Origin: a virus
Reading direction: 5' to 3' (one strand)
DNA: 10,384 nucleotides
Virus genome (UHGV): UHGV-0374782
The stretch's first letter is position 1. Each line of letters opens with the position of its first letter. The translations under genes and the position numbers were made by a program. Shown here in pieces: positions 1-10,384 of this stretch. The notes below the pieces were generated by a model. It ran no database searches and was not told the DNA's origin. It was given only the letters and a program-made list of their open reading frames with translations.

Positions 1-1812
1 GCTGATGCCAATGGCAAAATGCGCCCAAAGGAAACTGTGTTACTGGATTTGTACAAGGCCACGCAGAAATACGGGCAGGTTGATCAGGTTTCATTCTTTA
101 AAAACATTGCCGGTGAAGAAGCCTTTGTGGGTTTGCAAACACTGGTACAGGCGGCGGGTTCTGGTGAACTGCAAAAGCTGACAAAAGAACTTCAGGGGGC
201 AGCCGGTGAATCAGCGATCGTTGCAAAAAAAATGGCTGACAACCTGGGTGGTGACCTGAAAGAGCTCGACAGCGCCTGGGAAGCGTTCCGCATTCAGGTC
301 GAAGAACTCGCAGACGGTGCATTACGCAAATTAACTCAGGCATTAAGTGGCACTATCGGGGTTATGACAGAGTGGGCGCATAACAACCCCCAACTTTCAA
401 AAGCACTGCTGGTGACACTCGGAAGCACCCTGGCACTGACCGCCGGAATTGGCGCAACCTCCCTGGCGGTGGGCCTGCTGCTGGGGCCGCTGGCAAAGTT
501 ACAGCTTGGCTTTACCCTGTTAACCAGTGCAAGCGGGCTGGGTGGTGCGATCCCTCTGTTTACCCGTCTCGGTAGTGTGATTACCGGGCCGCTTGGCAGT
601 ATCCGCGGCTGGGGCCAGGCGTTCAGCATGATGGCAGGAAGCACCGGAAAACTCACTGCCGTATTAACGCCATTGCGCGGGATGATGGCGGCAGCGTTTA
701 TTTCACCAGGGGCGGCGCTCAGTGGTCTGGTTAAGGGTATTGGCGGCTTACTTCTCAGGCTGACCGGTATCCCTGCCATTATGGGAATAGCGTCATCAGC
801 GCTTAGCGCATTAGGCGGCGCGCTCTCTTTGCTGTTAAGTCCAATCGGCTTGATTGGCGCGGCATTTATCGCAACAGGGTTGCTGATCTGGCGATTCTGG
901 GAACCCATTAAGGCATTTTTTGCAGGCTTCTTTTCCGGGGTTATGCAGGCGCTGACGCCATTCCGGGATGCTTTCGCGGGTCTGGCCCCCGTTTTTGGGG
1001 TGATCGCTAATGCCGTCTCGCAGTTGTGGCAGTGGTTTAGCAATCTGCTGACCCCCGTGAACGCCAGTAAAGAGACGCTGGATAAATGCGCCAGCGCCGG
1101 GGAGACATTCGGCAGGGTCTTTGGCCTCGCCATTCAGGGGCTCATGTTACCTCTGACCGGGCTGGCCAAGATGGTTGGCTGGATTCTGGAAAAGCTGGGG
1201 CTGATACCCTCAGGAATCGACGCGGCAAAAGCGAAAGCGGAGAAAGTCCAGAAGGAATTAACACCGGCAGGGCTGGCATTACTTCAGGACAAAGTAAGTG
1301 CACTGACCGGAGATATTAAAGCCGCAAGCCAGCCTGTTGCAGCGCCGCCGTCACCCGTCATTGCAACTGAAACAGGAACCCAGCGCCGCCTGCAAAAAAT
1401 TGCTGACAACACCGGCGGGATGCTGGATGAAACCAAAAAGCAGCGGATTGGCCCCGGTGATATCGTGTTTAAAAACCTGCCCCAGGCACTCGCCGTTCAT
1501 GGTGCATGGCAGGAAGCACGATCAACGCCCGGAGCGAACCTGGCGCAACTTGGCGCACGAACAGTGATTGCAGCAGCATCCGCACCAATCAAACCACCGG
1601 TAACAGCACCGGCAGTGGGGCAACCTGGCAGGGCTGAACGAAGCTCCCAGGCGAAAACCGCCGCACCATTTGGGGAAATGCATGTTCATGTACACCTTCA
1701 CGGTAATTTCACGGATAACGCACGCGATATTGCCCGCGCAGCCGCTGACGCAGTACAGGCGGAATTTGATAAACGTTTCCGCTCACGTAGCAGCTTCAGT
1801 GACAACGATTAA
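1..1812 (+). CDS. Phage tail tape measure protein (P2 gpT-like), 5'-partial; the frame is open from base 1, so the gene starts upstream of the window
   Basis: About 600-codon ORF with no in-frame stop from base 1 (the ATG at 19 is internal). Long Gly/Ala/Leu-rich hydrophobic central stretches and coiled-coil-like ends are typical of tape measure proteins. It is followed 11 nt downstream by a gpU-like gene, as in the P2 FI-FII-E-T-U-D operon. Stop TAA at 1810..1812. Confidence 0.85.
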   Translation, partial: ADANGKMRPKETVLLDLYKATQKYGQVDQVSFFKNIAGEEAFVGLQTLVQAAGSGELQKLTKELQGAAGESAIVAKKMADNLGGDLKELDSAWEAFRIQVEELADGALRKLTQALSGTIGVMTEWAHNNPQLSKALLVTLGSTLALTAGIGATSLAVGLLLGPLAKLQLGFTLLTSASGLGGAIPLFTRLGSVITGPLGSIRGWGQAFSMMAGSTGKLTAVLTPLRGMMAAAFISPGAALSGLVKGIGGLLLRLTGIPAIMGIASSALSALGGALSLLLSPIGLIGAAFIATGLLIWRFWEPIKAFFAGFFSGVMQALTPFRDAFAGLAPVFGVIANAVSQLWQWFSNLLTPVNASKETLDKCASAGETFGRVFGLAIQGLMLPLTGLAKMVGWILEKLGLIPSGIDAAKAKAEKVQKELTPAGLALLQDKVSALTGDIKAASQPVAAPPSPVIATETGTQRRLQKIADNTGGMLDETKKQRIGPGDIVFKNLPQALAVHGAWQEARSTPGANLAQLGARTVIAAASAPIKPPVTAPAVGQPGRAERSSQAKTAAPFGEMHVHVHLHGNFTDNARDIARAAADAVQAEFDKRFRSRSSFSDND

Positions 1813-1823
1813 AGAGGATTGAA

Positions 1824-2312
1824 ATGATGATGGTTTACGGAATGTTCGTCTTTGAATTGAAGACCGTTCCACACCAACAAATGCAACAGTCAAAAACCTG
1901 GCGGCATGTGAAAAATGAGCGCATTAACCGTTCAGCAAAATGGCAGTACATTGGCGCTGGCGATGATCAGATCACGCTTTCCGGCGTGCTGTATCCTCAG
2001 ATTACCGGTGGCAAGGTTAGCCTTGCTGTACTGGATACGCAGGCATACACCGGACGGCCCTGGCCCCTGATTAGCGGCACAGGGCAGATCTTCGGGATGT
2101 ATGCCCTTACCCAGCTACAGACCACGCATACTGAATTCGACCGGTATGGAGAGGCAAAGAAAATAGAATTTACTATTACCTTCCAGCGAGAAGATGAAGA
2201 CCTCAGAGAAAGCCTTCAGTCATCATCCGTGGGGGATTTACTTAACAACCTACAGAGTACCGCCAAATCAGCGTATAACAGCGTGAGCGCCGCCACATCA
2301 AGCCTGTTTTAA
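1824..2312 (+). CDS. Phage tail protein U (P2 gpU-like)
   Basis: 162-aa ORF starting MMMVYGMFVFELKTVP..., recalled similarity to P2 gpU. Shine-Dalgarno AGAGGA lies 7 nt upstream of the ATG at 1824. It directly follows the tape measure stop, consistent with translational coupling. Confidence 0.85.
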   Translation: MMMVYGMFVFELKTVPHQQMQQSKTWRHVKNERINRSAKWQYIGAGDDQITLSGVLYPQITGGKVSLAVLDTQAYTGRPWPLISGTGQIFGMYALTQLQTTHTEFDRYGEAKKIEFTITFQREDEDLRESLQSSSVGDLLNNLQSTAKSAYNSVSAATSSLF

Positions 2313-2324
2313 CCGTTGACCAAT

Positions 2325-2354
2325 GCCGCGCCACCAGGTGCGGCTTTTATTTTT
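2325..2354 (+). terminator. Rho-independent terminator of the T-U transcription unit
   Basis: GCCGCGCC-ACCA-GGTGCGGC hairpin (8-bp GC-rich stem with one G-U pair, 4-nt loop) followed by TTTTATTTTT, 13 nt after the U stop. On the opposite strand there is no U-run after the hairpin, so it is unidirectional. Confidence 0.7.
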
Positions 2355-2391: not shown

Positions 2392-2945
2392 CTAATATTT
2401 ACCGGCGGGGATTTTTTTGTATAAGGTCGATATCCCAACATCATAAATAATCGCCACACGCCGCCGTGATTCTCCTGCCGCTAACAATCTTTCTGCCTGC
2501 GCCCATTGCTCCGGGGTTAATTTTGGTTTTCTGCCGCCGATCCTGCCCTCTGCACGCGCCGCAGACAATCCCGCCCTGGTGCGTTCGACAATCAACTCTC
2601 GCTCCATTTCAGCCAGTGCGCCCATGACGTGAAAGAAAAAACGCCCCATTGGCGAAGACGTATCTATGCTGTCAGTCAGGCTGCGAAAGTTAATCTCCCT
2701 TTCCCGCAGTTCCTCCACTAAAACGACAAGATGCCGCATGCTGCGACCGAGGCGATCCAGTTCCAGACCACAAGAGTATCGCCCTCTGACAAGGTTCGGA
2801 GCAGCCTTTTAAGCCCTGGTCTGTCTGATGTTTTACCGCTGATTTTGTCTTCAAAAATAAGCTCACATCCTGCGCACTCCAGTGCATTTCGCTGTAATGC
2901 GGTGTTCTGGTCATTTGTTGATACACGCACATAGCCGATAAGCAT
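2392..2945 (-). pseudogene. pin: Serine DNA invertase (Hin/Gin/Cin/Pin family), interrupted by a 1-nt frameshift
   Basis: Two adjacent minus-strand ORFs (2718..2945 and 2392..2739) together cover a full-length invertase. The N-terminal part has MLIGYVRVSTNDQNT...GDTLVVW with the catalytic Ser in VRVS. The C-terminal part has SLTDSIDTSSPMGRFFFHVMGALAEMERELIVERT and a C-terminal HTH. The frames rejoin if one nucleotide is restored in the sense sequence GTGGTCTGGAA-CTGGATCGCCTCGGTCGC (plus coords about 2760..2765), which would read W-K-L-D-R-L-G-R as in intact family members. The symbol is a family-level assignment. Confidence 0.85.
2846..2926. promoter_or_regulatory. Putative Fis-dependent recombinational enhancer inside the 5' coding region of the invertase gene
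   Basis: In hin, gin and cin the enhancer lies within the first ~100 bp of the invertase ORF, over codons for ...STxDQNxxLQRNAL.... The equivalent codons here (VSTNDQNTALQRNALECAGCE) map to about 2846..2926. This is positional inference only; individual Fis sites were not resolved. Confidence 0.3.
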
Positions 2946-2968
2946 GATAAATAGCCCTGTAAAAAGCC

Positions 2969-3550
2969 GTGATCATGCCATCCGAACGGAATAACTGCAT
3001 TTTCCAAAAGGTTGGTTTGGGAGAAGGCTCTGCATTACCGGTTGGGGTGCCTGTTCCGTGGCCTTCAGCCACTCCGCCAACAGGCTGGCTGAAATGCAAT
3101 GGTGCGGCTTTTTCTGCTGAAGAATACCCGGAACTGGCAAAGGCTTACCCGACCAATAAATTGCCTGATTTACGCGGTGAATTTATTCGTGGCTGGGATG
3201 ATGGACGTGGAGTGGATGCGGGGCGAGCCTTGCTAAGTCTTCAGGATGACTCTTTTGAAGCTCACAGACATGAGTCCTTTTTTTACGCGGGTATTTCACG
3301 CAATGAAACACCATTAAAAAATCTTCCAAGTTCAGACGAGATGCTGACTTTAAGTTCCACAACTAATGCCTTGTCCCCGGACAGTATTGATGCCACCAAT
3401 TCGTTAATTGGTAATGATGATTACAACTGTCTGATTGAAGGAAATAAAAATAACAAACGAACGGCAACGGGGTTGAGTACCAGTATTGTCGGTGCAGCAG
3501 AGACACGCCCACGTAATATTTCATTTAATTACATTGTGAGGGCTGCATGA
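2969..3550 (+). CDS. Alternative tail-fibre C-terminal cassette (Mu Sv'/P1 Sv'-like), silent in the present orientation
   Basis: The ORF reads through the crossover site in the same frame as the tail fibre gene (…FQKVGLGE|GSALPVGVPVPWP…). It carries the tail-collar motif PWP…PxGWLKCNG…YPELAKAYP…LPDLRGEFIRGWDDGRG and ends …NISFNYIVRAA, like Mu S / P1 S C-termini. The ATG at 2969 is unlikely to be a real start; only codons from about 3014 would be fused to the fibre constant region after inversion. Confidence 0.75.
   Translation: MIMPSERNNCIFQKVGLGEGSALPVGVPVPWPSATPPTGWLKCNGAAFSAEEYPELAKAYPTNKLPDLRGEFIRGWDDGRGVDAGRALLSLQDDSFEAHRHESFFYAGISRNETPLKNLPSSDEMLTLSSTTNALSPDSIDATNSLIGNDDYNCLIEGNKNNKRTATGLSTSIVGAAETRPRNISFNYIVRAA
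3000..3025. other. Invertase crossover site (gix/pix/hix-like), left boundary of the invertible segment
   Basis: 26-bp imperfect palindrome TTTTCCAAAAGG-TT-GGTTTGGGAGAA. The right half-site fits the family consensus GGTTTnnGAGAA exactly, and it is in inverted orientation relative to the site at 4638..4663. Confidence 0.8.
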
Positions 3551-4155
3551 TGTATAACGCTATCTTAAATAATAAATTTATTGCCACAAAGGCAGGAGAG
3601 GTTACCGTTTATAACTATGACAGTGAGACACGGGAGTATATTTCTGCATCAATTGAATATCTTGCTGTGGGTGTCGGTATCCCCGCATATTCCTGTTTAG
3701 ATGCTCCTGGCACACATAAGGCTGGTTATGCAATCTGCCGTTCTGCAGATTTTAACTCATGGGAATATGTGCCAGACCATCGCGGTGAAATCGTCTTTAG
3801 CACCGAAACAGGAGAATCAAAAGAAATCACAGCTCCGGGTGATTACCCTGATAATACAACCACTATCGCCCCGTTAACACCATACGATAAATGGGATGGT
3901 GAGAAATGGGTGACGGATACCGATGCACAGCATAGCGCCGCAGTAGATGCAGCAGAAGCACAACGCCTGTCGCTGATTGATACTGCAATGGCTTCCATCA
4001 GTCTGATTCAACTGAAATTACAGGCCGGACGGAATCTGACGCAGGCAGAAACCAGCCGACTTAACACGGTGCTGGATTACATTGACGCGGTGACGGCAAC
4101 AGATACCAGCACCGCGCCTGATATTATTTGGCCTGTATTCCCTGAGACTGATTAA
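3547..4155 (+). CDS. Tail fibre assembly protein (Tfa / Mu U'-like chaperone) for the alternative fibre tip
   Basis: 202-aa ORF overlapping the upstream cassette stop by ATGA. The C-terminal motif …LNTVLDYIDAVTATDTSTAPDIIWPVFPE is characteristic of the Tfa/gpG/U chaperone family. Confidence 0.85.
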   Translation: MMYNAILNNKFIATKAGEVTVYNYDSETREYISASIEYLAVGVGIPAYSCLDAPGTHKAGYAICRSADFNSWEYVPDHRGEIVFSTETGESKEITAPGDYPDNTTTIAPLTPYDKWDGEKWVTDTDAQHSAAVDAAEAQRLSLIDTAMASISLIQLKLQAGRNLTQAETSRLNTVLDYIDAVTATDTSTAPDIIWPVFPETD

Positions 4156-4384
4156 CCTCAATTAGTATTGGTTCGCCTTTCTCATTAATTGTTAGCTCCA
4201 TGCCCTGAGGAATTTCTGTCATAGTAAAAAACCAGTTGTCCTCCGGTAATTCAATAGCCCCGGTCACGTCATGAAGACCGGGGATTACTTCAGTCAAAGT
4301 AACTGGATTAAACAGGCGCACAATAAACCCTCCAGGAAAAAGCATTTGATGATGGTCTGCCGTCGTACATCTGGCAGCGGGCAT
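4124..4384 (-). CDS. Hypothetical small ORF downstream of the expressed fibre tip; the start is uncertain (candidate ATGs at 4345, 4222, 4201) and it may not be a gene
   Basis: 86-codon ORF whose 5' end overlaps the fibre gene's 3' end in another frame and whose 3' end overlaps the 3' end of the convergent Tfa gene by 32 nt. No convincing Shine-Dalgarno precedes any internal ATG. It has no Tfa-like C-terminal motif. It occupies the position where Mu or P1 would carry the second chaperone gene. Confidence 0.2.
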   Translation of the reverse strand: MPAARCTTADHHQMLFPGGFIVRLFNPVTLTEVIPGLHDVTGAIELPEDNWFFTMTEIPQGMELTINEKGEPILIEVNQSQGIQAK

Positions 4385-5699
4385 AAAAGCCGGTATTTGT
4401 TAACTGATCATCCACGATCATTGAAACGTGAACATTATTAGGTGTGCTCTCGTAATCCGTTCTTATTCTTTCCGCGATACTGATAAAACGTGAAAGTTTA
4501 GGCAGTGCAATTGGGTAAACAACTTTAGCCAGTCCATTATCATTAGATCCACCGGTTCCAAATACTTCTATTGCACCATCTGACCAGCGTATCCATGCAC
4601 CATTGGCATTAGCTCCTCGCTGAATGACATATCTGGCTTCTCCCAAACCAAGGTATTGGAGAAGGCCTGAAACACTTTTCCCACTGAGGTCGGTCAGTGT
4701 GGCATCCAGTGGTTGTTTACCTGCCAGTGCATTTGTGATTGTCGTGGCGAAGTTAGGGTCATTACCCAATGCGGCCGCCAGTTCATTTAACGTATCCAGT
4801 GCCTCCGGCGACGAGCCGACCAGCCCGGCAACCGCTGCTTTCACAAATGCCGTGGTAGCAATCTGCGTATTATTCACCGTCTGCGCAGCCGTCGGAGCCG
4901 TCGGCGTTCCGGTCAGGGCCGGGCTTGCCAGTGGTGCTTTCAGCGCCAACGCATTGTTAATAGTGGTGCTGAAATTTGGGTCATTGTTGATAGCCACAGC
5001 AATTTCTTTCAGCGTATCCAGCGTTGCCGGTGCTCCGCCGATCAGGGTAAGAATCGCCGCCTGCACAAAAGCAGTACTGGCAATCTGCGTGGTGTTATTC
5101 CCTGCCGGTGCCGTTGGTGTTTTTGGCGTTCCGGTAAGTGACGGGCTTTCCTTCGGTGCATATTGCTTATGCGGATCTGCCGCCGAAAGGTGAGAGTCCA
5201 TCAGCTTAGTTGCATAACTCTTAACCTCAAGCACTGCCACATCAACATACTGACGCGTTGCGAGTACCACAGACGGATCAATCTTCAGGGTAACTGCGTC
5301 CGTGCTCGATACAGTTAGAAGCATCCTGATAACCTGAGTTCGGCCCGATCCCTCATCTGTTGTCGCCTTGTATGTTTCCGGGCAGTTAGCAACAGCAATC
5401 AAATCACCATCAGCATCAAAAAGCCCGATTTCGCGAATCCACCAACCACCGGCAGATTCAGGAATAATTTGTTCTGCAATAATCTGGCTGTCGTTGTTTT
5501 TATCGACTGACAGGGAATTAAGCTGGGCGCGGCGCACCTCGTTAACCAGCTTCGTTTGAGCCTGGTTAGGGGTTGGCGATACACCGCCGCCATCACCTAC
5601 CGCGAGTGAAGTGATATTCAGCTTTTCACCCAGCGCCGCCATGTTTGATAATTTTGCTGCCCCCACATTAGTCAGCAGGGCAAAGTATTTAAGCGCCAT
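4308..5699 (-). CDS. Tail fibre protein (P2 gpH-like); constant region about aa 1-350, variable tip about aa 355-463 lying inside the invertible segment
   Basis: The N-terminus (…AVGDGGG…, …IRMLLTVSS…) resembles P2 gpH / Mu S N-terminal baseplate-attachment domains. The shaft has two about 74-aa repeats (LTGTP…NNTQIA.TAFV…LDTL.E.A.A..NDPNF.TTI.NALA.K). The C-terminal tip (…GAWIRWSDGAIEVFGT…VVYPIALP…TGFYARCQ…FSWRVY…) looks like a complete distal receptor-binding domain, but of a different class from the silent cassette. The start overlaps the upstream gpI-like gene end. Confidence 0.9.
   Translation of the reverse strand: MALKYFALLTNVGAAKLSNMAALGEKLNITSLAVGDGGGVSPTPNQAQTKLVNEVRRAQLNSLSVDKNNDSQIIAEQIIPESAGGWWIREIGLFDADGDLIAVANCPETYKATTDEGSGRTQVIRMLLTVSSTDAVTLKIDPSVVLATRQYVDVAVLEVKSYATKLMDSHLSAADPHKQYAPKESPSLTGTPKTPTAPAGNNTTQIASTAFVQAAILTLIGGAPATLDTLKEIAVAINNDPNFSTTINNALALKAPLASPALTGTPTAPTAAQTVNNTQIATTAFVKAAVAGLVGSSPEALDTLNELAAALGNDPNFATTITNALAGKQPLDATLTDLSGKSVSGLLQYLGLGEARYVIQRGANANGAWIRWSDGAIEVFGTGGSNDNGLAKVVYPIALPKLSRFISIAERIRTDYESTPNNVHVSMIVDDQLTNTGFYARCQMYDGRPSSNAFSWRVYCAPV
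4638..4663. other. Invertase crossover site (gix/pix/hix-like), right boundary of the invertible segment
   Basis: Plus strand TTCTCCCAAACCAAGGTATTGGAGAA; its reverse complement is TTCTCCAATACC-TT-GGTTTGGGAGAA. It shares 23 of 27 positions with the 3000..3025 site and the same central TT dinucleotide. Confidence 0.8.
4700..5145. repeat. Intragenic tandem direct repeat, two units with a 222-bp period, encoding the tail-fibre shaft repeats
   Basis: Anchors repeat at a 222-bp offset: gggtcatt at 4756 and 4978, cgtatccag at 4791 and 5013, gcaatctgcgt at 4858 and 5080. The units are imperfect (very roughly 70% identical by eye). Boundaries are approximate. Confidence 0.6.
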
Positions 5700-6303
5700 T
5701 TGTTACCTCTAACGTATCAATAATATGTATTGCTCCCCCAGGGAAATAACCGCCGCTTACTTCCACTGCTTCCGGCATATAGGGGTAAATTGTCATCACG
5801 TCGCCGCCATAGCACCCGGCGTGAGCGTAAAGCTTTCCCTCCACCTGCAAATTAATGGCAAGGCCGGTAAGGTGACGTGAGCACGGTTTTGCATCAGCGA
5901 TCAGGCGCTCAAGCTCACGATAGGTCTCCTCAGTAATTCCTGATTCAGAAACACCGATTTCAAGCTGAAATGTCCCTGGCTCACCGCCGGTCTGCCACCA
6001 CTCGATCACCTTTATCAGGAAGCCGAACGGCTCCACTACATGGCGTAGCGCCGCGATGGTTCCCTTCTGACGATGTACCACCCAGGCTGATTTGATCACC
6101 TGGCGTTTCGTTTGCTCTGACCAGTTCTTATCCCAGCGATCAACAGACAGCGCCCACGCCAGATAAGGCAGGAGGGCAACCGGGCATTCATCGGGATTCC
6201 ACAGCTTGCGCAAATCTACCGGAATATCTGTTATGCGCTGCGTACCCGCCTCTGCACGACGCATGAAATCGCTGGCTGAAGGAGGTAACAGACTTTTATT
6301 CAT
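5689..6303 (-). CDS. Baseplate / tail protein I (P2 gpI-like)
   Basis: Contains …LWNPDECPVALLPYLAWALSVDRWD…HRQKGTIAALRHVVEPFGFLIKVIEWW…ERLIADAKPCSRHL…, recalled similarity to P2 gpI. The preferred start is the ATG at 6303 (MNKSLLPP…), preceded by GAGGGGGA and overlapping the J stop in ATGAATAA. The longest ORF would extend to 6357, which would overlap the J-like gene by 60 nt and is less likely. Confidence 0.85.
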   Translation of the reverse strand: MNKSLLPPSASDFMRRAEAGTQRITDIPVDLRKLWNPDECPVALLPYLAWALSVDRWDKNWSEQTKRQVIKSAWVVHRQKGTIAALRHVVEPFGFLIKVIEWWQTGGEPGTFQLEIGVSESGITEETYRELERLIADAKPCSRHLTGLAINLQVEGKLYAHAGCYGGDVMTIYPYMPEAVEVSGGYFPGGAIHIIDTLEVTNGA

Positions 6304-7192
6304 CTGTTCCCCCTCTGGTGATTGTGACGGAGGTACAGCGCGCCGCCTGGGTATCACTGATCACCACATTGTTGATCGGCGACTGAACCTCCACGCGCTG
6401 CACACCCTGGACGTGTAACGCTGCCATGATTGCTGACAACGCAACATCACGACCAATACCTCCCTGCCCTGCCAGCCAGGATTGCAACGCCTTTTCAGCC
6501 GCATCAGCGATGGGCTCAGATTCCGGCCCCGGATAAAAGTAAAGGGTGGCGCTAATGTCGTAGTTAATGATCTCCGCGCTCTGTACGGTCAACCGGTCGC
6601 CAACCGGGCGCACGCTCTCATCCGATAACGCCGCGTTTACGGTGGTGATTAGCTCTGCTGAAGCCGTACCATCACCTTCTGAGGACAGTATCGATACAAT
6701 AACCTCGGCAGGTGCCGGGCTTGACGCTTTGGCGTCTGCCACCTTGCCAGAAGCGCTTTTTGCAAAATACTCATAAGCGGCGGTTGGCCCGGCAACACTC
6801 AGCCCTTCAAATGCCGCCTGAGCGCGCAAACGTAACTTTGAATCGCTTTCCATTACGGCACCTGTTGTATCGGTCGCCTCAGTAATGGTTAGTCTTTTGG
6901 TGTTGTTATTCGCCGCCAGGTTATCCAGATCCGTTGATGTGGCATGGCTTAACATGCACGCAGCAGCACCGTCATTTATGGCCTGCCGTAACATTAATTC
7001 ACGGTATGCCACCACCTGAGCGATCACATTTAGTGGCTCTGATTCAAGTTCCATCGCTGCCGCAATCGCGCTTTGCTTCTCTTTTGGGTAGGCCGAAATC
7101 ATCATCGCTTTCACTTCGCTCAAAATAACTTCGTAATCCAGCGTGGCGATCACTTCCGGTGGTGGCAGTTCCGATAAATCAATAGTTGCCAT
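6296..7192 (-). CDS. Baseplate assembly protein J (P2 gpJ-like)
   Basis: 298 aa with …LESEPL…YREL…RQ…, …RLTIT…, …AFEGLSVAG…Y…, …VRPV.DRLTVQSA…, …LY.YPGPESEPI…, …GRD..LSAI.AALHV.GVQRVE… matching the P2 gpJ pattern. It sits between the W-like and I-like genes as in P2. Confidence 0.9.
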   Translation of the reverse strand: MATIDLSELPPPEVIATLDYEVILSEVKAMMISAYPKEKQSAIAAAMELESEPLNVIAQVVAYRELMLRQAINDGAAACMLSHATSTDLDNLAANNNTKRLTITEATDTTGAVMESDSKLRLRAQAAFEGLSVAGPTAAYEYFAKSASGKVADAKASSPAPAEVIVSILSSEGDGTASAELITTVNAALSDESVRPVGDRLTVQSAEIINYDISATLYFYPGPESEPIADAAEKALQSWLAGQGGIGRDVALSAIMAALHVQGVQRVEVQSPINNVVISDTQAARCTSVTITRGGTDE

Positions 7193-7547
7193 TGTCCTGT
7201 TCCTTCAAAGTCACAGAGCCTGTCGCCGCCTGCATGGTGGTAGTGATCAGCCCGCTAAGTCCCACTGTCACCGCGCCGGACTCTGAAAAATTCACATCCA
7301 CCTGATTTAAAGCGATGCGCGGCTCCCACTGCGTTAAAGCAATCACCGTGGCGCTCATCAGTTGCAATCGTGTCGTTTCGTTCTGAGGCTCATCCAGCAA
7401 GTCAGGTAATAAACTGCCATACGTGCGGCGCATCACCCGCGACCCCAGCGGTGTTAACAGGACATCTTTCACCGACTGCCAGAGGTGATCACTGTCGGAA
7501 AGCGTTCCTGTTCCGGCCTGATTCATGCCCGTATATTTCGCTGTCAT
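7179..7547 (-). CDS. Baseplate assembly protein W (P2 gpW / gp25-like)
   Basis: 122 aa starting MTAKYTGMN… with …PLGSRVMRR.YGSLL…L.D.PQ…, recalled similarity to P2 gpW. ATGA overlap with the V stop. Confidence 0.85.
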   Translation of the reverse strand: MTAKYTGMNQAGTGTLSDSDHLWQSVKDVLLTPLGSRVMRRTYGSLLPDLLDEPQNETTRLQLMSATVIALTQWEPRIALNQVDVNFSESGAVTVGLSGLITTTMQAATGSVTLKEQDNGNY

Positions 7548-8125
7548 TGCGTCCCCTTCGTCCAGCTACCACCAGGTTGAACAGCGCCATGAGTATGTTC
7601 ATCAACCCGTACACCGTTTGAGGTAAGCGCGCCGCCGGTGTGTGTGACGCCGCCAGTCATCTTCCCACCCTCAGTGAAATCAAAGGTTTTTGCCTTCAGA
7701 TGGCTGGTACACTCCACCACCGCTGTATCAAGCGTGATTTTTGTCTCGGCCTGAATCGTTGCCGTTTTCATGCCGCTTGCGGTCAACGCGCTAACCTCTG
7801 CGTCATATTCGAATCTGGCCCCGTCAGGCGCTGTAACCACCATCTGTTTCAGGCTGGCAGAGGGGGCGTCATTTTCATTGCTGTACAGACTCCCCAGCAA
7901 AACCGCCGTTTCCGGGTTGCCACCGATACAGCCCAATAACACCTGCTCACCCCGCGACGGCGGACACCAAATCTTAAAATCACCGGCACGGCCTGTTTTC
8001 CAGCGAAGCCAGGTTGTTTTCAGTTCGCCGCTCTGTACGCGCACGCTTTTACCGTCTTCCGATATTTCCGCGACAATACCCACACGCAGCACGTTTTCCA
8101 GGAGTCTCATCAGTTCGGCGCTCAT
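7544..8125 (-). CDS. Baseplate spike/hub protein V (P2 gpV-like)
   Basis: 193 aa with an N-terminal …GIV.E…RV..G….T.WL.W…RAG… region and a C-terminal …THTGG.L.SNG…H.H… motif, as in P2 gpV. ATGA overlap with the S stop. Confidence 0.85.
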   Translation of the reverse strand: MSAELMRLLENVLRVGIVAEISEDGKSVRVQSGELKTTWLRWKTGRAGDFKIWCPPSRGEQVLLGCIGGNPETAVLLGSLYSNENDAPSASLKQMVVTAPDGARFEYDAEVSALTASGMKTATIQAETKITLDTAVVECTSHLKAKTFDFTEGGKMTGGVTHTGGALTSNGVRVDEHTHGAVQPGGSWTKGTQ

Positions 8126-8760
8126 TTCCCCGCACTCCCCAGACTGTTGATCACTGCACTACGGATCAGTGCCTCATCCGCTTTGGAAATTCCCAGCAAT
8201 ACGCGGGGGGCATATTTGGCGAAAGCACCGGGCCCAATCTGCTCACGTAAACCGTCCTGATGAATACGTGCAATACGCGCCGCCATACCACTAAAACCAA
8301 CCTCAGCACCTTCAGATGTCGCTTTCATCTTCATAAAGCGGGATGTGCGCAGCTTCACGAACATTGGCGCTTTGACGGTTCTGGGCGTCTGACCCGCCCG
8401 TGTATTAATCTCGGTATAGCGTTCAATGTCAGCCCGATAAAACGTGCGCACTTCATTCCTGTCTTCATCAAATCCGGTGATGGTTCGCCCGTACTTACCG
8501 CGTCCGCTGTGCCAGTTTTTCAGTCGTCGCAACTGACCTTCCCAGATGAAGGAGATCCCCTGCTGCGTGCGTAATTTTTTACGGCGTCGCGCCGGGTACT
8601 GGCTCCCGTCCGGATTACGTTGTGCGCGTATACGCTGCTGTTGGCTGATGCGCAGCATCTTCCCAACTTCACGCGCCGTCCTGGCTCGCCCGGTAGGTGA
8701 CACCCCCGCCAGGATGTCAGAGAAATACTGATCCAGTGTGTGAATACCTTCGGCACTCAT
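8122..8760 (-). CDS. Phage virion morphogenesis / tail completion protein S-like
   Basis: 212-aa basic protein in the position of P2 gpS, between R and V, with ATGA overlaps on both sides. The family call is from position and general resemblance to virion-morphogenesis (P2 S / Mu G) proteins. It is longer than P2 gpS (150 aa). Confidence 0.7.
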   Translation of the reverse strand: MSAEGIHTLDQYFSDILAGVSPTGRARTAREVGKMLRISQQQRIRAQRNPDGSQYPARRRKKLRTQQGISFIWEGQLRRLKNWHSGRGKYGRTITGFDEDRNEVRTFYRADIERYTEINTRAGQTPRTVKAPMFVKLRTSRFMKMKATSEGAEVGFSGMAARIARIHQDGLREQIGPGAFAKYAPRVLLGISKADEALIRSAVINSLGSAGK

Positions 8761-9212
8761 AAGGGCGCACTCCAGGTAACGTCCTCAATAATTCCGCTCC
8801 ATTCCGGCTGTATACGTGGGCGAGGCTCTGGCTTGTGATCTGCCTTTAACGTGCCATCGTCATTGCGCGTTACGATCACACGCTCGCTGATGGGTAATTC
8901 GAAAAATAAATCCGCAGTGTCGTCGCTGTTGATCGCCGTGGTGAATTTAATCTCTTTGTTTTTTTCAGGATTCAGCAACAGTTGCGGTTGCTCCTGCCAC
9001 AGCCAGGCCATCAACGGAAGGGTAAAATCATCCAGATCACCGGCAAAATTCATCACAAACAGACACAGCGTATAGGCATAAACAAAATCAGCCGTTTCGC
9101 CGGTCGTCTCCACATGCCCGGACTCAATGAACACACTGAAGGCTTCAGGGTTTGCCTTGCACCACTGGTTCGAACGGGTGAGCGCATCGCGCAGGGAGTT
9201 AATTTTCAGCAT
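8757..9212 (-). CDS. Tail completion protein R (P2 gpR-like)
   Basis: 151 aa starting MLKINSLRDALT…, recalled N-terminal similarity to P2 gpR (MLKPDSLRRALT…). It lies immediately downstream of the lysis genes and upstream of S, as in P2. Confidence 0.8.
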   Translation of the reverse strand: MLKINSLRDALTRSNQWCKANPEAFSVFIESGHVETTGETADFVYAYTLCLFVMNFAGDLDDFTLPLMAWLWQEQPQLLLNPEKNKEIKFTTAINSDDTADLFFELPISERVIVTRNDDGTLKADHKPEPRPRIQPEWSGIIEDVTWSAPL

Positions 9213-9540
9213 GTTGCTTAACCTCTTTACCTTGCTGGCGCGCCAGGCGCTTCAGATTCAACTCACTGATCGCACGCTTGTCCGCGTTGCAGCTATCAAG
9301 CGCGTCATGTAACCGATCGGCGTAAATCGCGATTCCACCCCACGTGACCGGCGTTTTCAGTTCCGGTTCCGGGGTTTCATTAGTCAGGCTTTGCGGTACT
9401 GGTTCGTGAATCAGCCGGGTTTGCACTTTTATCTTTTCTGAGCAACCCATTACTGACAGCAACAGGCACAACAGCACCGGCACATTTATCAGTACGCATC
9501 GCCGTGGACATATTTTCACGCCTGGCTTCACCTTCACCAT
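9199..9540 (-). CDS. o-spanin (LysC/Rz1-like outer-membrane lipoprotein), overlapping the i-spanin gene in another frame
   Basis: Start ATG at 9540 preceded by AGGAG. Signal peptide MVKVKPGVKICPRRCVLINVPVLLCLLLSVMG followed by Cys (lipobox-like VMGC). The mature part is Pro-rich with a C-terminal Cys. The gene begins inside the i-spanin gene and runs past its end into the start of R, the classic P2 lysB/lysC overlapped architecture. Confidence 0.6.
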   Translation of the reverse strand: MVKVKPGVKICPRRCVLINVPVLLCLLLSVMGCSEKIKVQTRLIHEPVPQSLTNETPEPELKTPVTWGGIAIYADRLHDALDSCNADKRAISELNLKRLARQQGKEVKQHAEN

Positions 9541-9751
9541 TTCGCTCCTGTTCCGCTTTTCTGACATCTGCAAGCACCGCTTGCGCATCAGCCGTTAGCC
9601 CGCGCATTTCTGCGATCACTGCTTCACTTTCATCAAACATGCGCTGCAATTTTTCTTCGTTATCGTCTGCAATGGCGCCTGTGTATCCCCGGTAATAACC
9701 GGATGCATAACCACCAATGCTGATGACGAGTAACCACAAAAAAGTTTTCAC
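9380..9751 (-). CDS. i-spanin (LysB/Rz-like inner-membrane protein)
   Basis: 123 aa with an N-terminal transmembrane segment (FLWLLVISIGGYASGYY) then a charged, helical periplasmic domain. Apparent GTG start at 9751 with GGAGG 5 nt upstream; GTGA overlap with the endolysin stop. Confidence 0.6.
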   Translation of the reverse strand: MKTFLWLLVISIGGYASGYYRGYTGAIADDNEEKLQRMFDESEAVIAEMRGLTADAQAVLADVRKAEQERNGEGEARRENMSTAMRTDKCAGAVVPVAVSNGLLRKDKSANPADSRTSTAKPD

Positions 9752-10290
9752 CTGGCCTCCAGATCTCGCTTACACCACACCTGGAAATCAGTACGTCGAT
9801 TTACCAGGCCCTGCGACCGCTTACCGGCGCTGTTCACAAAATCGGTTAACCGGTCACACACGCCGCTCCAGTTGTGCGCCTGGGCGTTTTTCCAGATCGT
9901 GGTACGCTGCTTGCGTTTGTTCTTATCCGTGAACCACATCAGCCCCGAACACCCCACATTCAGCCCGGCATCAGCCATCGCCTCAAATACGGATTGCGGC
10001 ATCGCCTTACCATTGAAGTTCTGGTTTATGCAGTTCTCGGAATGCTGCATGTCATTTACCCAGCGGCGGGCCACCTCTGCATTGCTGTACTCGCGCTTCT
10101 GCACGTTGCCGGTTGAACCAATCCCCACGGTCAACACCCCGGCGGTACAGTAGTAAGGCGTGTTACGGCAATCTTCCCAGGACGCTATTTTTTGCTGTGC
10201 TTCAGGCGACGTCCGCAACACATCGGGCGACATCGACACCCCCAGGGCGACAATCAGCGCGACTGAGCAACGTTTAATAACCGCCTTCAT
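9748..10290 (-). CDS. SAR endolysin, GH24 lysozyme of the P1 Lyz type
   Basis: Preferred start ATG at 10290 (GGGGA upstream); the track's 10296 start is a TTG. The N-terminus has a weakly hydrophobic signal-anchor-release-like segment containing a Cys (KRCSVALIVALGVSM). The catalytic region is SWEDCRNTPYYCTAGVLTVGIGSTG: Glu, then Cys in the position of the T4 lysozyme catalytic Asp, then Thr, with an extra caging Cys two residues after the Glu. This matches the P1 Lyz arrangement. Confidence 0.85.
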   Translation of the reverse strand: MKAVIKRCSVALIVALGVSMSPDVLRTSPEAQQKIASWEDCRNTPYYCTAGVLTVGIGSTGNVQKREYSNAEVARRWVNDMQHSENCINQNFNGKAMPQSVFEAMADAGLNVGCSGLMWFTDKNKRKQRTTIWKNAQAHNWSGVCDRLTDFVNSAGKRSQGLVNRRTDFQVWCKRDLEAR

Positions 10291-10384
10291 CGTCAATCCC
10301 CGCTTTGAGTTGTGTTAACTCCTGCCGCTCAACGGCAGTCAGATCCCGGCGCGCTGCCAGCGTCAGAATCTGCTCAATCAGGGC
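10274..10384 (-). CDS. 3' end (36 codons) of a gene running off the window edge; by position a probable holin or pinholin
   Basis: Open frame from the window end to TAA at 10276..10274 (…ALIEQILTLAARRDLTAVERQELTQLKAGIDDEGGY*), overlapping the endolysin start. The charged, hydrophilic C-terminus and the position upstream of the endolysin suggest a holin. The protein family cannot be confirmed from 36 residues. Confidence 0.3.
   Translation of the reverse strand, partial: ALIEQILTLAARRDLTAVERQELTQLKAGIDDEGGY

Follow-up and report, generated by a model that had tools for sequence, protein, structure and literature searches.

Invertible segments served by serine DNA invertases of the Din family are known from Salmonella (Hin/hix), phage Mu (G segment, Gin), phage P1 (C segment, Cin) and prophage e14 (P segment, Pin). 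The closest described counterparts of the locus considered here are the e14 P segment, whose repeats (TTGGTTTGGGAGAAGG) have been inverted experimentally in Escherichia coli K-12 by PinE and PinQ (PMC12529663), and the segments of E. coli P2-like prophages, for which inversion was shown by sequencing and PCR (PMC4272514). We analysed a stretch of 10,384 nucleotides from the virus genome UHGV-0374782 (hereafter the window) and read it as carrying, at the 3′ end of the tail-fibre gene H of a defective P2-family prophage, a Din-family segment of the Pin/e14 type whose invertase is broken and which is most likely frozen, a reading to which we give a probability of roughly 85%. Systems of this kind have been described before, and the copy here is one in decay. 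A preliminary description had presented the locus as a complete, invertase-driven switch of the Mu G, P1 C or e14 P type in a P2-family tail module; the type of switch and the module were recognised correctly, while its completeness did not survive the analysis below.

By analogy with the literature on Hin, Gin, Cin and Pin, an intact system of this kind would work through a serine invertase that binds both 26-bp sites and assembles an invertasome with Fis at an enhancer in the 5′ part of the invertase gene; cleavage at the central AA/TT, strand rotation and religation would then invert the 1,640-bp segment, and the 3′ end of H would be swapped together with the downstream partner gene. The constant part of H would in this way be joined either to a 109-amino-acid (aa) tip, accompanied by a 65-aa open reading frame (ORF), or to a 174-aa collar tip, accompanied by the tail-fibre assembly protein Tfa. 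Because of a 1-nt deletion in its invertase gene, the copy in the window cannot drive the switch itself and, with the enzyme missing, the 109-aa tip is most likely the one permanently expressed, unless a compatible invertase acts in trans; it is from this that we infer the present inactivity of the switch.

Comparison with described systems

The likeness to e14 extends over the whole segment (window positions 3012–4651, from core dinucleotide to core dinucleotide), which is 99.7% identical over 1,640 bp to the e14 P segment of strain AL.H8. The inner half-sites and core are the same as those of pixL and pixR, and the layout is shared, with invertase, site, tip and Tfa followed by the 65-aa ORF, the other tip and the second site. 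The window differs from e14 in its backbone, which here is a P2-family myovirus tail module, in its invertase gene, which is ~75% identical in DNA and frameshifted, and in the outer half-sites, which are unlike those of e14 because they are part of the flanking backbone. With the P2-like prophages pro483, SCU-485, NCTC8623 and those of enteropathogenic E. coli (EPEC) E2348/69, the locus shares the position of the segment at the 3′ end of H and the adjoining invertase; among these prophages both orientations occur in nature, and experiments in EPEC have revealed switching (PMC4272514). Their invertases are intact, whereas that of the window is dead. Gene order in pro483, SCU-485 and NCTC8623 is also the canonical P2 order of H-[segment]-invertase-FI-FII-E-T (through U and D in pro483), whereas here the FI–U block is convergent with H. 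The constant part of H is ~70% identical to its counterparts in the P2-like relatives, and in e14 no match to it was detected.

The P1 C/Cin and Mu G/Gin systems resemble the locus in recombinase subfamily (82% aa identity to Cin and 78% to Gin), in the enhancer-homologous stretch within the 5′ part of the invertase gene and in the combination of a constant S or H part with a variable tip and a chaperone. The segment is shorter here (1.6 kb, compared with about 3 kb in Mu and 4.2 kb in P1), its tips are unrelated to Mu S and S′, and the partner of one tip is the 65-aa ORF rather than a U-type Tfa. Salmonella Hin/hix has in common with the window the invertase family and the 26-bp site architecture, and the outer half of hixR (TTTTCCTTTTGG) is similarly divergent to TTTTCCAAAAGG here; while Hin flips a promoter, it is 3′ coding cassettes that would be swapped in the present locus.

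Crossover sites and the invertible segment

The longest inverted repeat of the window (2997–3026 and 4637–4666; 30 nt, 83% complementary) contains two 26-mers, TTTTCCAAAAGGTTGGTTTGGGAGAA at 3000–3025 and TTCTCCCAAACCAAGGTATTGGAGAA at 4638–4663, which are 22/26 identical in inverted orientation and have the same central dinucleotide (TT at 3012–3013, AA at 4650–4651). Both are imperfect palindromes, with internal dyad symmetry of 8/12 and 10/12, respectively, and inverted orientation and identical core are likewise as in Din-family sites. The 14-mer common to the two (TTCTCCCAAACCAA) has exactly two occurrences in the window, against a chance expectation of 0.11 matches for a scan with 2 mismatches allowed. 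The invertase-proximal site (3000–3025) reads, as its reverse complement, TTCTCCCAAACC AA CCTTTTGGAAAA, and the site inside H (4638–4663) reads TTCTCCCAAACC AA GGTATTGGAGAA, its minus strand encoding ..LLQYLGLGE... Published sequences of the e14 sites are TTCTCCCAAACC AA GGTTTTCGAGAG for pixL and TTCTCCCAAACC AA CGTTTATGAAAA for pixR (PMC3241671, Table 3), and the inner half and core of both window sites are identical to these. Alignment to gix, cix, pix and hix, which the preliminary description had proposed and for which the P1 and Mu records were used, bears out its assignment of two inverted 26-bp Din-family sites: in addition to the match with the pix sites, the site within H agrees with P1 cixR (TTCTCTTAAACCAAGGTATTGGATAA; P1 record, PMC3241671) at 23/26 positions, and window 3012–3027 is identical to the K-12 e14 repeat.

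In the invertase-proximal site the outer half, CCTTTTGGAAAA, is atypical, relatives having CGTTTAnGAAAA (CGTTTA[T/A]GAAAA in 4 relatives). A CC adjoining the core occurs in hixR and nix sites too (PMC3241671), so that this outer half is not clearly disabling. A third crossover site, as in a shufflon or a Min-type system, was considered and rejected, the window having two only; a scan of the 43-kb locus gave one further 2-mismatch match, which lies inside the tape-measure gene and is without a second half-site. The dual constraint on the site, as coding and as binding sequence, to which attention had been drawn, is a textbook feature of gix and cix, not a new one.

Gene H reads into the segment from one side, and the alternative tip and Tfa face the other way, as had been described. 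The constant N-terminal part of H (4664–5699, minus strand; PF12571 Phage_tail_fib, 3.7e-61) is a P2 gpH-type N-terminus, follows I, J, W and V, and lies outside the segment, while two in-frame 3′ cassettes lie inside it, which is the layout of a host-range switch. The tip currently forming the C-terminus of H comprises 109 aa (4308–4637, minus strand; part of ORF 4308–5699). Profile searches of the tips, also proposed earlier, matched it to phrog_2557 (8.6e-15) and phrog_2712 'tail fiber' (1.1e-5), and it is 99.1–99.7% identical in e14 and the P2-like relatives. The silent alternative tip of 174 aa (3026–3550, plus strand) matched PF07484 Collar (1.7e-15) and phrog_523 'tail collar fiber protein' (1e-69); its cassette is 100% identical to that of e14 AL.H8, and RefSeq gives it as a 191-aa ORF (2975–3550). 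While this tip had been called Mu-S-like, BLASTP E values of 0.75 against S and 1.1 against S′ do not sustain the comparison; like the tips of HK97 Stf and e14 StfE, it belongs to the collar type. In-silico inversion of 3012–4651 keeps the reading frame (...LQYLGLGE/GSALPVG...) and replaces the 109-aa tip of H with the 174-aa tip, taking H from 463 to 528 aa, which agrees with the swap predicted from the frames on either side of the crossover.

Each tip has a partner within the segment. The collar tip is paired with Tfa (3547–4155, plus strand; 202 aa; PF02413 Caudo_TAP, 3.9e-31; phrog_105, 1.8e-95), and the 109-aa tip with the 65-aa ORF downstream of it (4124–4321, minus strand; WP_001440573.1), a candidate partner or chaperone. 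The identical protein WP_001440573.1 is encoded in e14 AL.H8 and in NCTC8623, and the 65-aa length is kept in e14 and P2-like copies; the 3′ end of the ORF overlaps the convergent Tfa gene by 32 nt. Similarity to phrog_5400 (unknown function; 1.4e-25) covers profile positions 1–66 of 145 only, no Pfam or NCBIfam match was found for the ORF, and the NCBIfam search of the four segment proteins returned nothing. The product could be a partner protein that is short by nature, or one that has been truncated; its derivation from the 147-aa Tfa of pro483 by truncation was rejected, the two having no similarity. Scanning for consensus promoters turned up no sigma-70-like site ahead of the silent cassette; as it turned up none for the invertase either, the scan is uninformative.

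The H protein also contains two tandem 74-aa repeats at residues about 184–331 (window about 4700–5160, minus strand), present as a direct repeat with a 222-nt spacing and following the pattern SPxLTGTP...NNTQIATTAFV...LDTLxE...NDPNF....

A frameshifted invertase and the state of the switch

An invertase gene had been described as abutting one of the sites, and a homologue of the Pin/Cin/Gin type does stand there (2392–2945, minus strand), but it is a pseudogene, split by a 1-nt deletion into two ORFs (2718–2945 and 2392–2739). Called against five intact genes (e14 pinE, pro483, NCTC8623, P1 cin and Mu gin), the deletion lies between 2760 and 2761, where a G is missing from TGG AAG CTG (codon 62/63), and RefSeq (PGAP) marks the gene as 'frameshifted' and a pseudogene. 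The resolvase catalytic domain (PF00239) is split over both ORFs and the C-terminal helix-turn-helix (HTH) domain (PF02796, HTH_7) is present, as in the invertases that adjoin other Din-family segments. Restoring one G gives a product of 184 aa whose identity is 82% with both P1 Cin and PinE and 78% with Gin (78–84% across Gin, Cin, PinE and other invertases), with the Gin structures 3UJ3/4M6F as the closest solved ones (E 2e-90). As the frameshift is upstream of both the DRLGR catalytic motif and the HTH domain, both fragments must be inactive, and the locus is without the intact invertase of an autonomous system.

The exact copy is known from three assemblies of two strains: E. coli JX21CE33 (chicken, two assemblies) and 30EVA2 (human, Singapore) carry the window at 100% identity on their chromosomes, with the same frameshift and the same segment orientation in all three. 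The switch is therefore neither 'complete' nor 'invertase-driven', its cognate invertase being frameshifted in every assembly that carries it, and a search of the chromosome gave no second close Pin/Gin/Cin-type gene at E ≤ 1e-40.

Nucleotides 19–90 of the invertase gene (2856–2927, minus strand) are 60/72 identical to the annotated P1 cin enhancer, the corresponding figures being 55/72 for Mu, 55/72 for e14 and 58/72 for pro483. Judged by this homology, the 5′ part of the gene would contain a putative Fis-dependent recombinational enhancer. Codon 84 of the repaired gene (2692–2694) specifies Glu, compared with Gly in all six sequences compared (RERGINF to REREINF), and this G84E substitution could be a second lesion of the invertase.

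Among the alternatives to a frozen segment, the one that fares best is that the segment still flips by means of a serine invertase supplied in trans by another prophage, a P1-like plasmid or a superinfecting phage. Activation by a PinQ-type, plasmid or phage invertase is possible, although on the evidence available we think it unlikely that it keeps this segment switching. Din-family invertases cross-complement, which speaks for such a route. In K-12 the e14 P segment is inverted by the PinQ of another prophage (PMC12529663) and has the same core as the segment here; in addition, a second place on the chromosome weakly resembles an invertase (found at E ≤ 1e-5 but lost at E ≤ 1e-40). Set against these are the lack of a second close homologue at the above threshold, the single orientation in all three assemblies and, despite an enhancer-homologous stretch in cis, the atypical outer half of the invertase-proximal site.

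Several points also weigh against our own conclusion that the segment is frozen. With two strains only carrying the exact copy, their common orientation is weak evidence of locking, and since orientation is known from assemblies, residual switching is possible. The weak chromosomal match counts here as well; distant invertases of the PinQ/PinR type would escape blastn, and the invertase search covered the chromosome. Finally, the odd outer half of the invertase-proximal site could be a product of decay or could be harmless.

Far less probable is a fully functional and autonomous switch, with the frameshift being a sequencing error or bypassed in translation. It would fit that a single base is all the invertase ORF lacks, that its identity to Cin and PinE is as high as 82%, and that both crossover sites and the stretch homologous to the enhancer are conserved; yet the deletion recurs in three assemblies from two independent strains (chicken; human, Singapore), the gene carries the PGAP 'frameshifted' flag, the context of the deletion as read from the sequence, GGAA-CTGG, is no long homopolymer and no slippery site of a known kind, and the N-terminal fragment would be without the DRLGR motif and the HTH domain. 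We consider it just as improbable that the remnant has been domesticated by the host and that the products of the segment serve the cell, for example by blocking phage receptors, instead of setting phage host range. The e14 StfE2 chimera is a precedent for this (PMC12529663), virions are impossible with the portal gene truncated and early genes absent, and the segment ORFs are intact and 99–100% identical to copies elsewhere. The dead invertase, however, means that the regulated inversion on which the e14 mechanism relies is lost, deletion of the whole region in a sister strain argues against selection to keep it, and recent acquisition explains the high identity equally well. That the inverted repeats are a chance occurrence or a by-product of tail-fibre homology, without site-specific recombination, can be dismissed: the shared stretch encodes a conserved GLGE peptide, and protein-level conservation could contribute, but the repeats match published functional Din-family sites down to the dyad and core dinucleotide, adjoin an invertase homologue, are far from the 0.11 matches expected and coincide at the core with the exact breakpoints of the SCU-485/NCTC8623 isomer pair described below.

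Orientation in relatives and cassette exchange

At least 80% of the segment is held by 79 of 5,426 genomes, and the junction produced by in-silico inversion is present in 11 genomes. The P2-like prophage segments of SCU-485, where it is flipped, and NCTC8623 are 98.5% identical to that of the window. These two prophages have identical outer flanks, intact invertases and opposite segment orientation, and so represent natural inversion isomers; the SCU-485 H protein, of 528 aa, is fused to the collar tip. Both orientations, for which a search of sequencing data had been suggested as a check, are thus seen among relatives, whereas the three assemblies with the exact copy of the window show a single one.

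The NCTC8623 record (NZ_LR134234.1) contains two P2-like prophages ~20 kb apart across the record origin (4934410–4937341 and 13977–16143), both of which carry the segment, one in the state of the window and one with the collar tip fused to H. A 93%-identical segment is annotated differently in two assemblies labelled 'DH5alpha', and likewise between the W/KO11FL and HBUT-L/hubt-sl records, appearing either as a fused 'tail-collar fiber' protein or as separate 'phage tail protein' entries. These annotation differences suggest that both orientations may have been captured within a strain.

Identity between the window and its relatives breaks at the core dinucleotide. Inside the segment it is 98.5–99.7%; outside, it is 70–75% or undetectable, depending on the backbone, with flanks at 70–75% and invertase genes at 72–75% in DNA across relatives. 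Homology to stf/tfa (window 3012–4135; 86–92%) starts exactly at 3012 in every match, with HK97, HK106, an E. coli O157:H43 P2-like phage and Klebsiella phages among the phages concerned; the DNA of the 174-aa tip is ~92% identical to HK97 stf/tfa. This shared boundary is consistent with an exchange of tips at 3012 even in phages without an invertase. More tentatively, recombination at the core might carry the segment, as a mobile cassette, from one prophage backbone to another, unrelated one (e14, several P2-like lineages and HK97-like stf genes), a proposal that we consider doubtful but worth stating. A role for stf-associated invertases as drivers of tail-fibre exchange has already been proposed, in a passage of PMC3945230 that cites Sandmeier 1994, and the locus would therefore be a clean example of the idea and no discovery.

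Host prophage

In 30EVA2, yegQ and yegS flank the P2-family prophage that carries the window, which in the RefSeq annotation runs ogr, D, FI, FII, E, E′, T, U and the switch region, followed by H, I, J, W, V, S, R, the lysis genes, X, L, M, N, O and P. The window itself holds T, U, V, W, J, I and H, as in the tail module of the P2 family (Peduoviridae), and FI, FII, E and D of the same prophage are just beyond its ends; matches to PF06995 GpU and PF12571, together with the RefSeq annotation, support a P2-type tail module. The portal gene is cut next to IS1B (locus record L001, 33755–35195, outside the window), and no early, integrase or immunity genes are left in the annotation past the truncated gene. 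The same prophage in AMSCJX04 (giant panda) lacks window 2705–9366 through a 6.66-kb deletion (locus record L006, around 10402–10405) that spans from the interior of the invertase gene to the lysis genes, with loss of the whole switch together with H, I, J, W, V, S and R. This deletion and the truncated portal gene show the prophage to be decaying, and the host element is, as read from its gene content and order, a defective P2-family remnant with a Reginaelenavirus-like gene order. A further truncation, within the tape-measure gene, is seen in strain HUE1.

The FI-FII-E-E′-T-U block (window 1–2312; L001 13036–20013) is on the strand opposite to H–V (4308–10296) and D/ogr, whereas FI–U, H–V and D/ogr are all collinear in P2 and pro483. 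The FI–U genes are convergent on H also in Klebsiella phage 3LV2017 (Reginaelenavirus) and in the 80%-identical ES1 prophage, from which it follows that the order is native to this Peduoviridae lineage and is no rearrangement. A large invertase-mediated inversion as the source of the opposite orientation was considered and rejected, since the block is not bordered by inverted repeats. Between the convergent gpU and invertase genes lies a terminator-like hairpin (2325–2344, plus strand) with an 8-bp stem, 7 G-C pairs and a following T run.

Significance

The finding matters little beyond annotation. The proper description of the locus is that of a Pin-type invertible tail-fibre segment with a pseudogenised invertase in a defective prophage, and ORF 2975–3550 is a silent 3′ cassette, not a stand-alone 'phage tail protein'. 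The abrupt loss of identity at the core illustrates how tips are exchanged as cassettes among unrelated phages, which is of use in host-range prediction and in tailocin or phage engineering, while introducing no new principle. If invertases do catalyse exchange between elements, a remnant with a dead invertase, such as this one, would act as a store from which active phages obtain tips.

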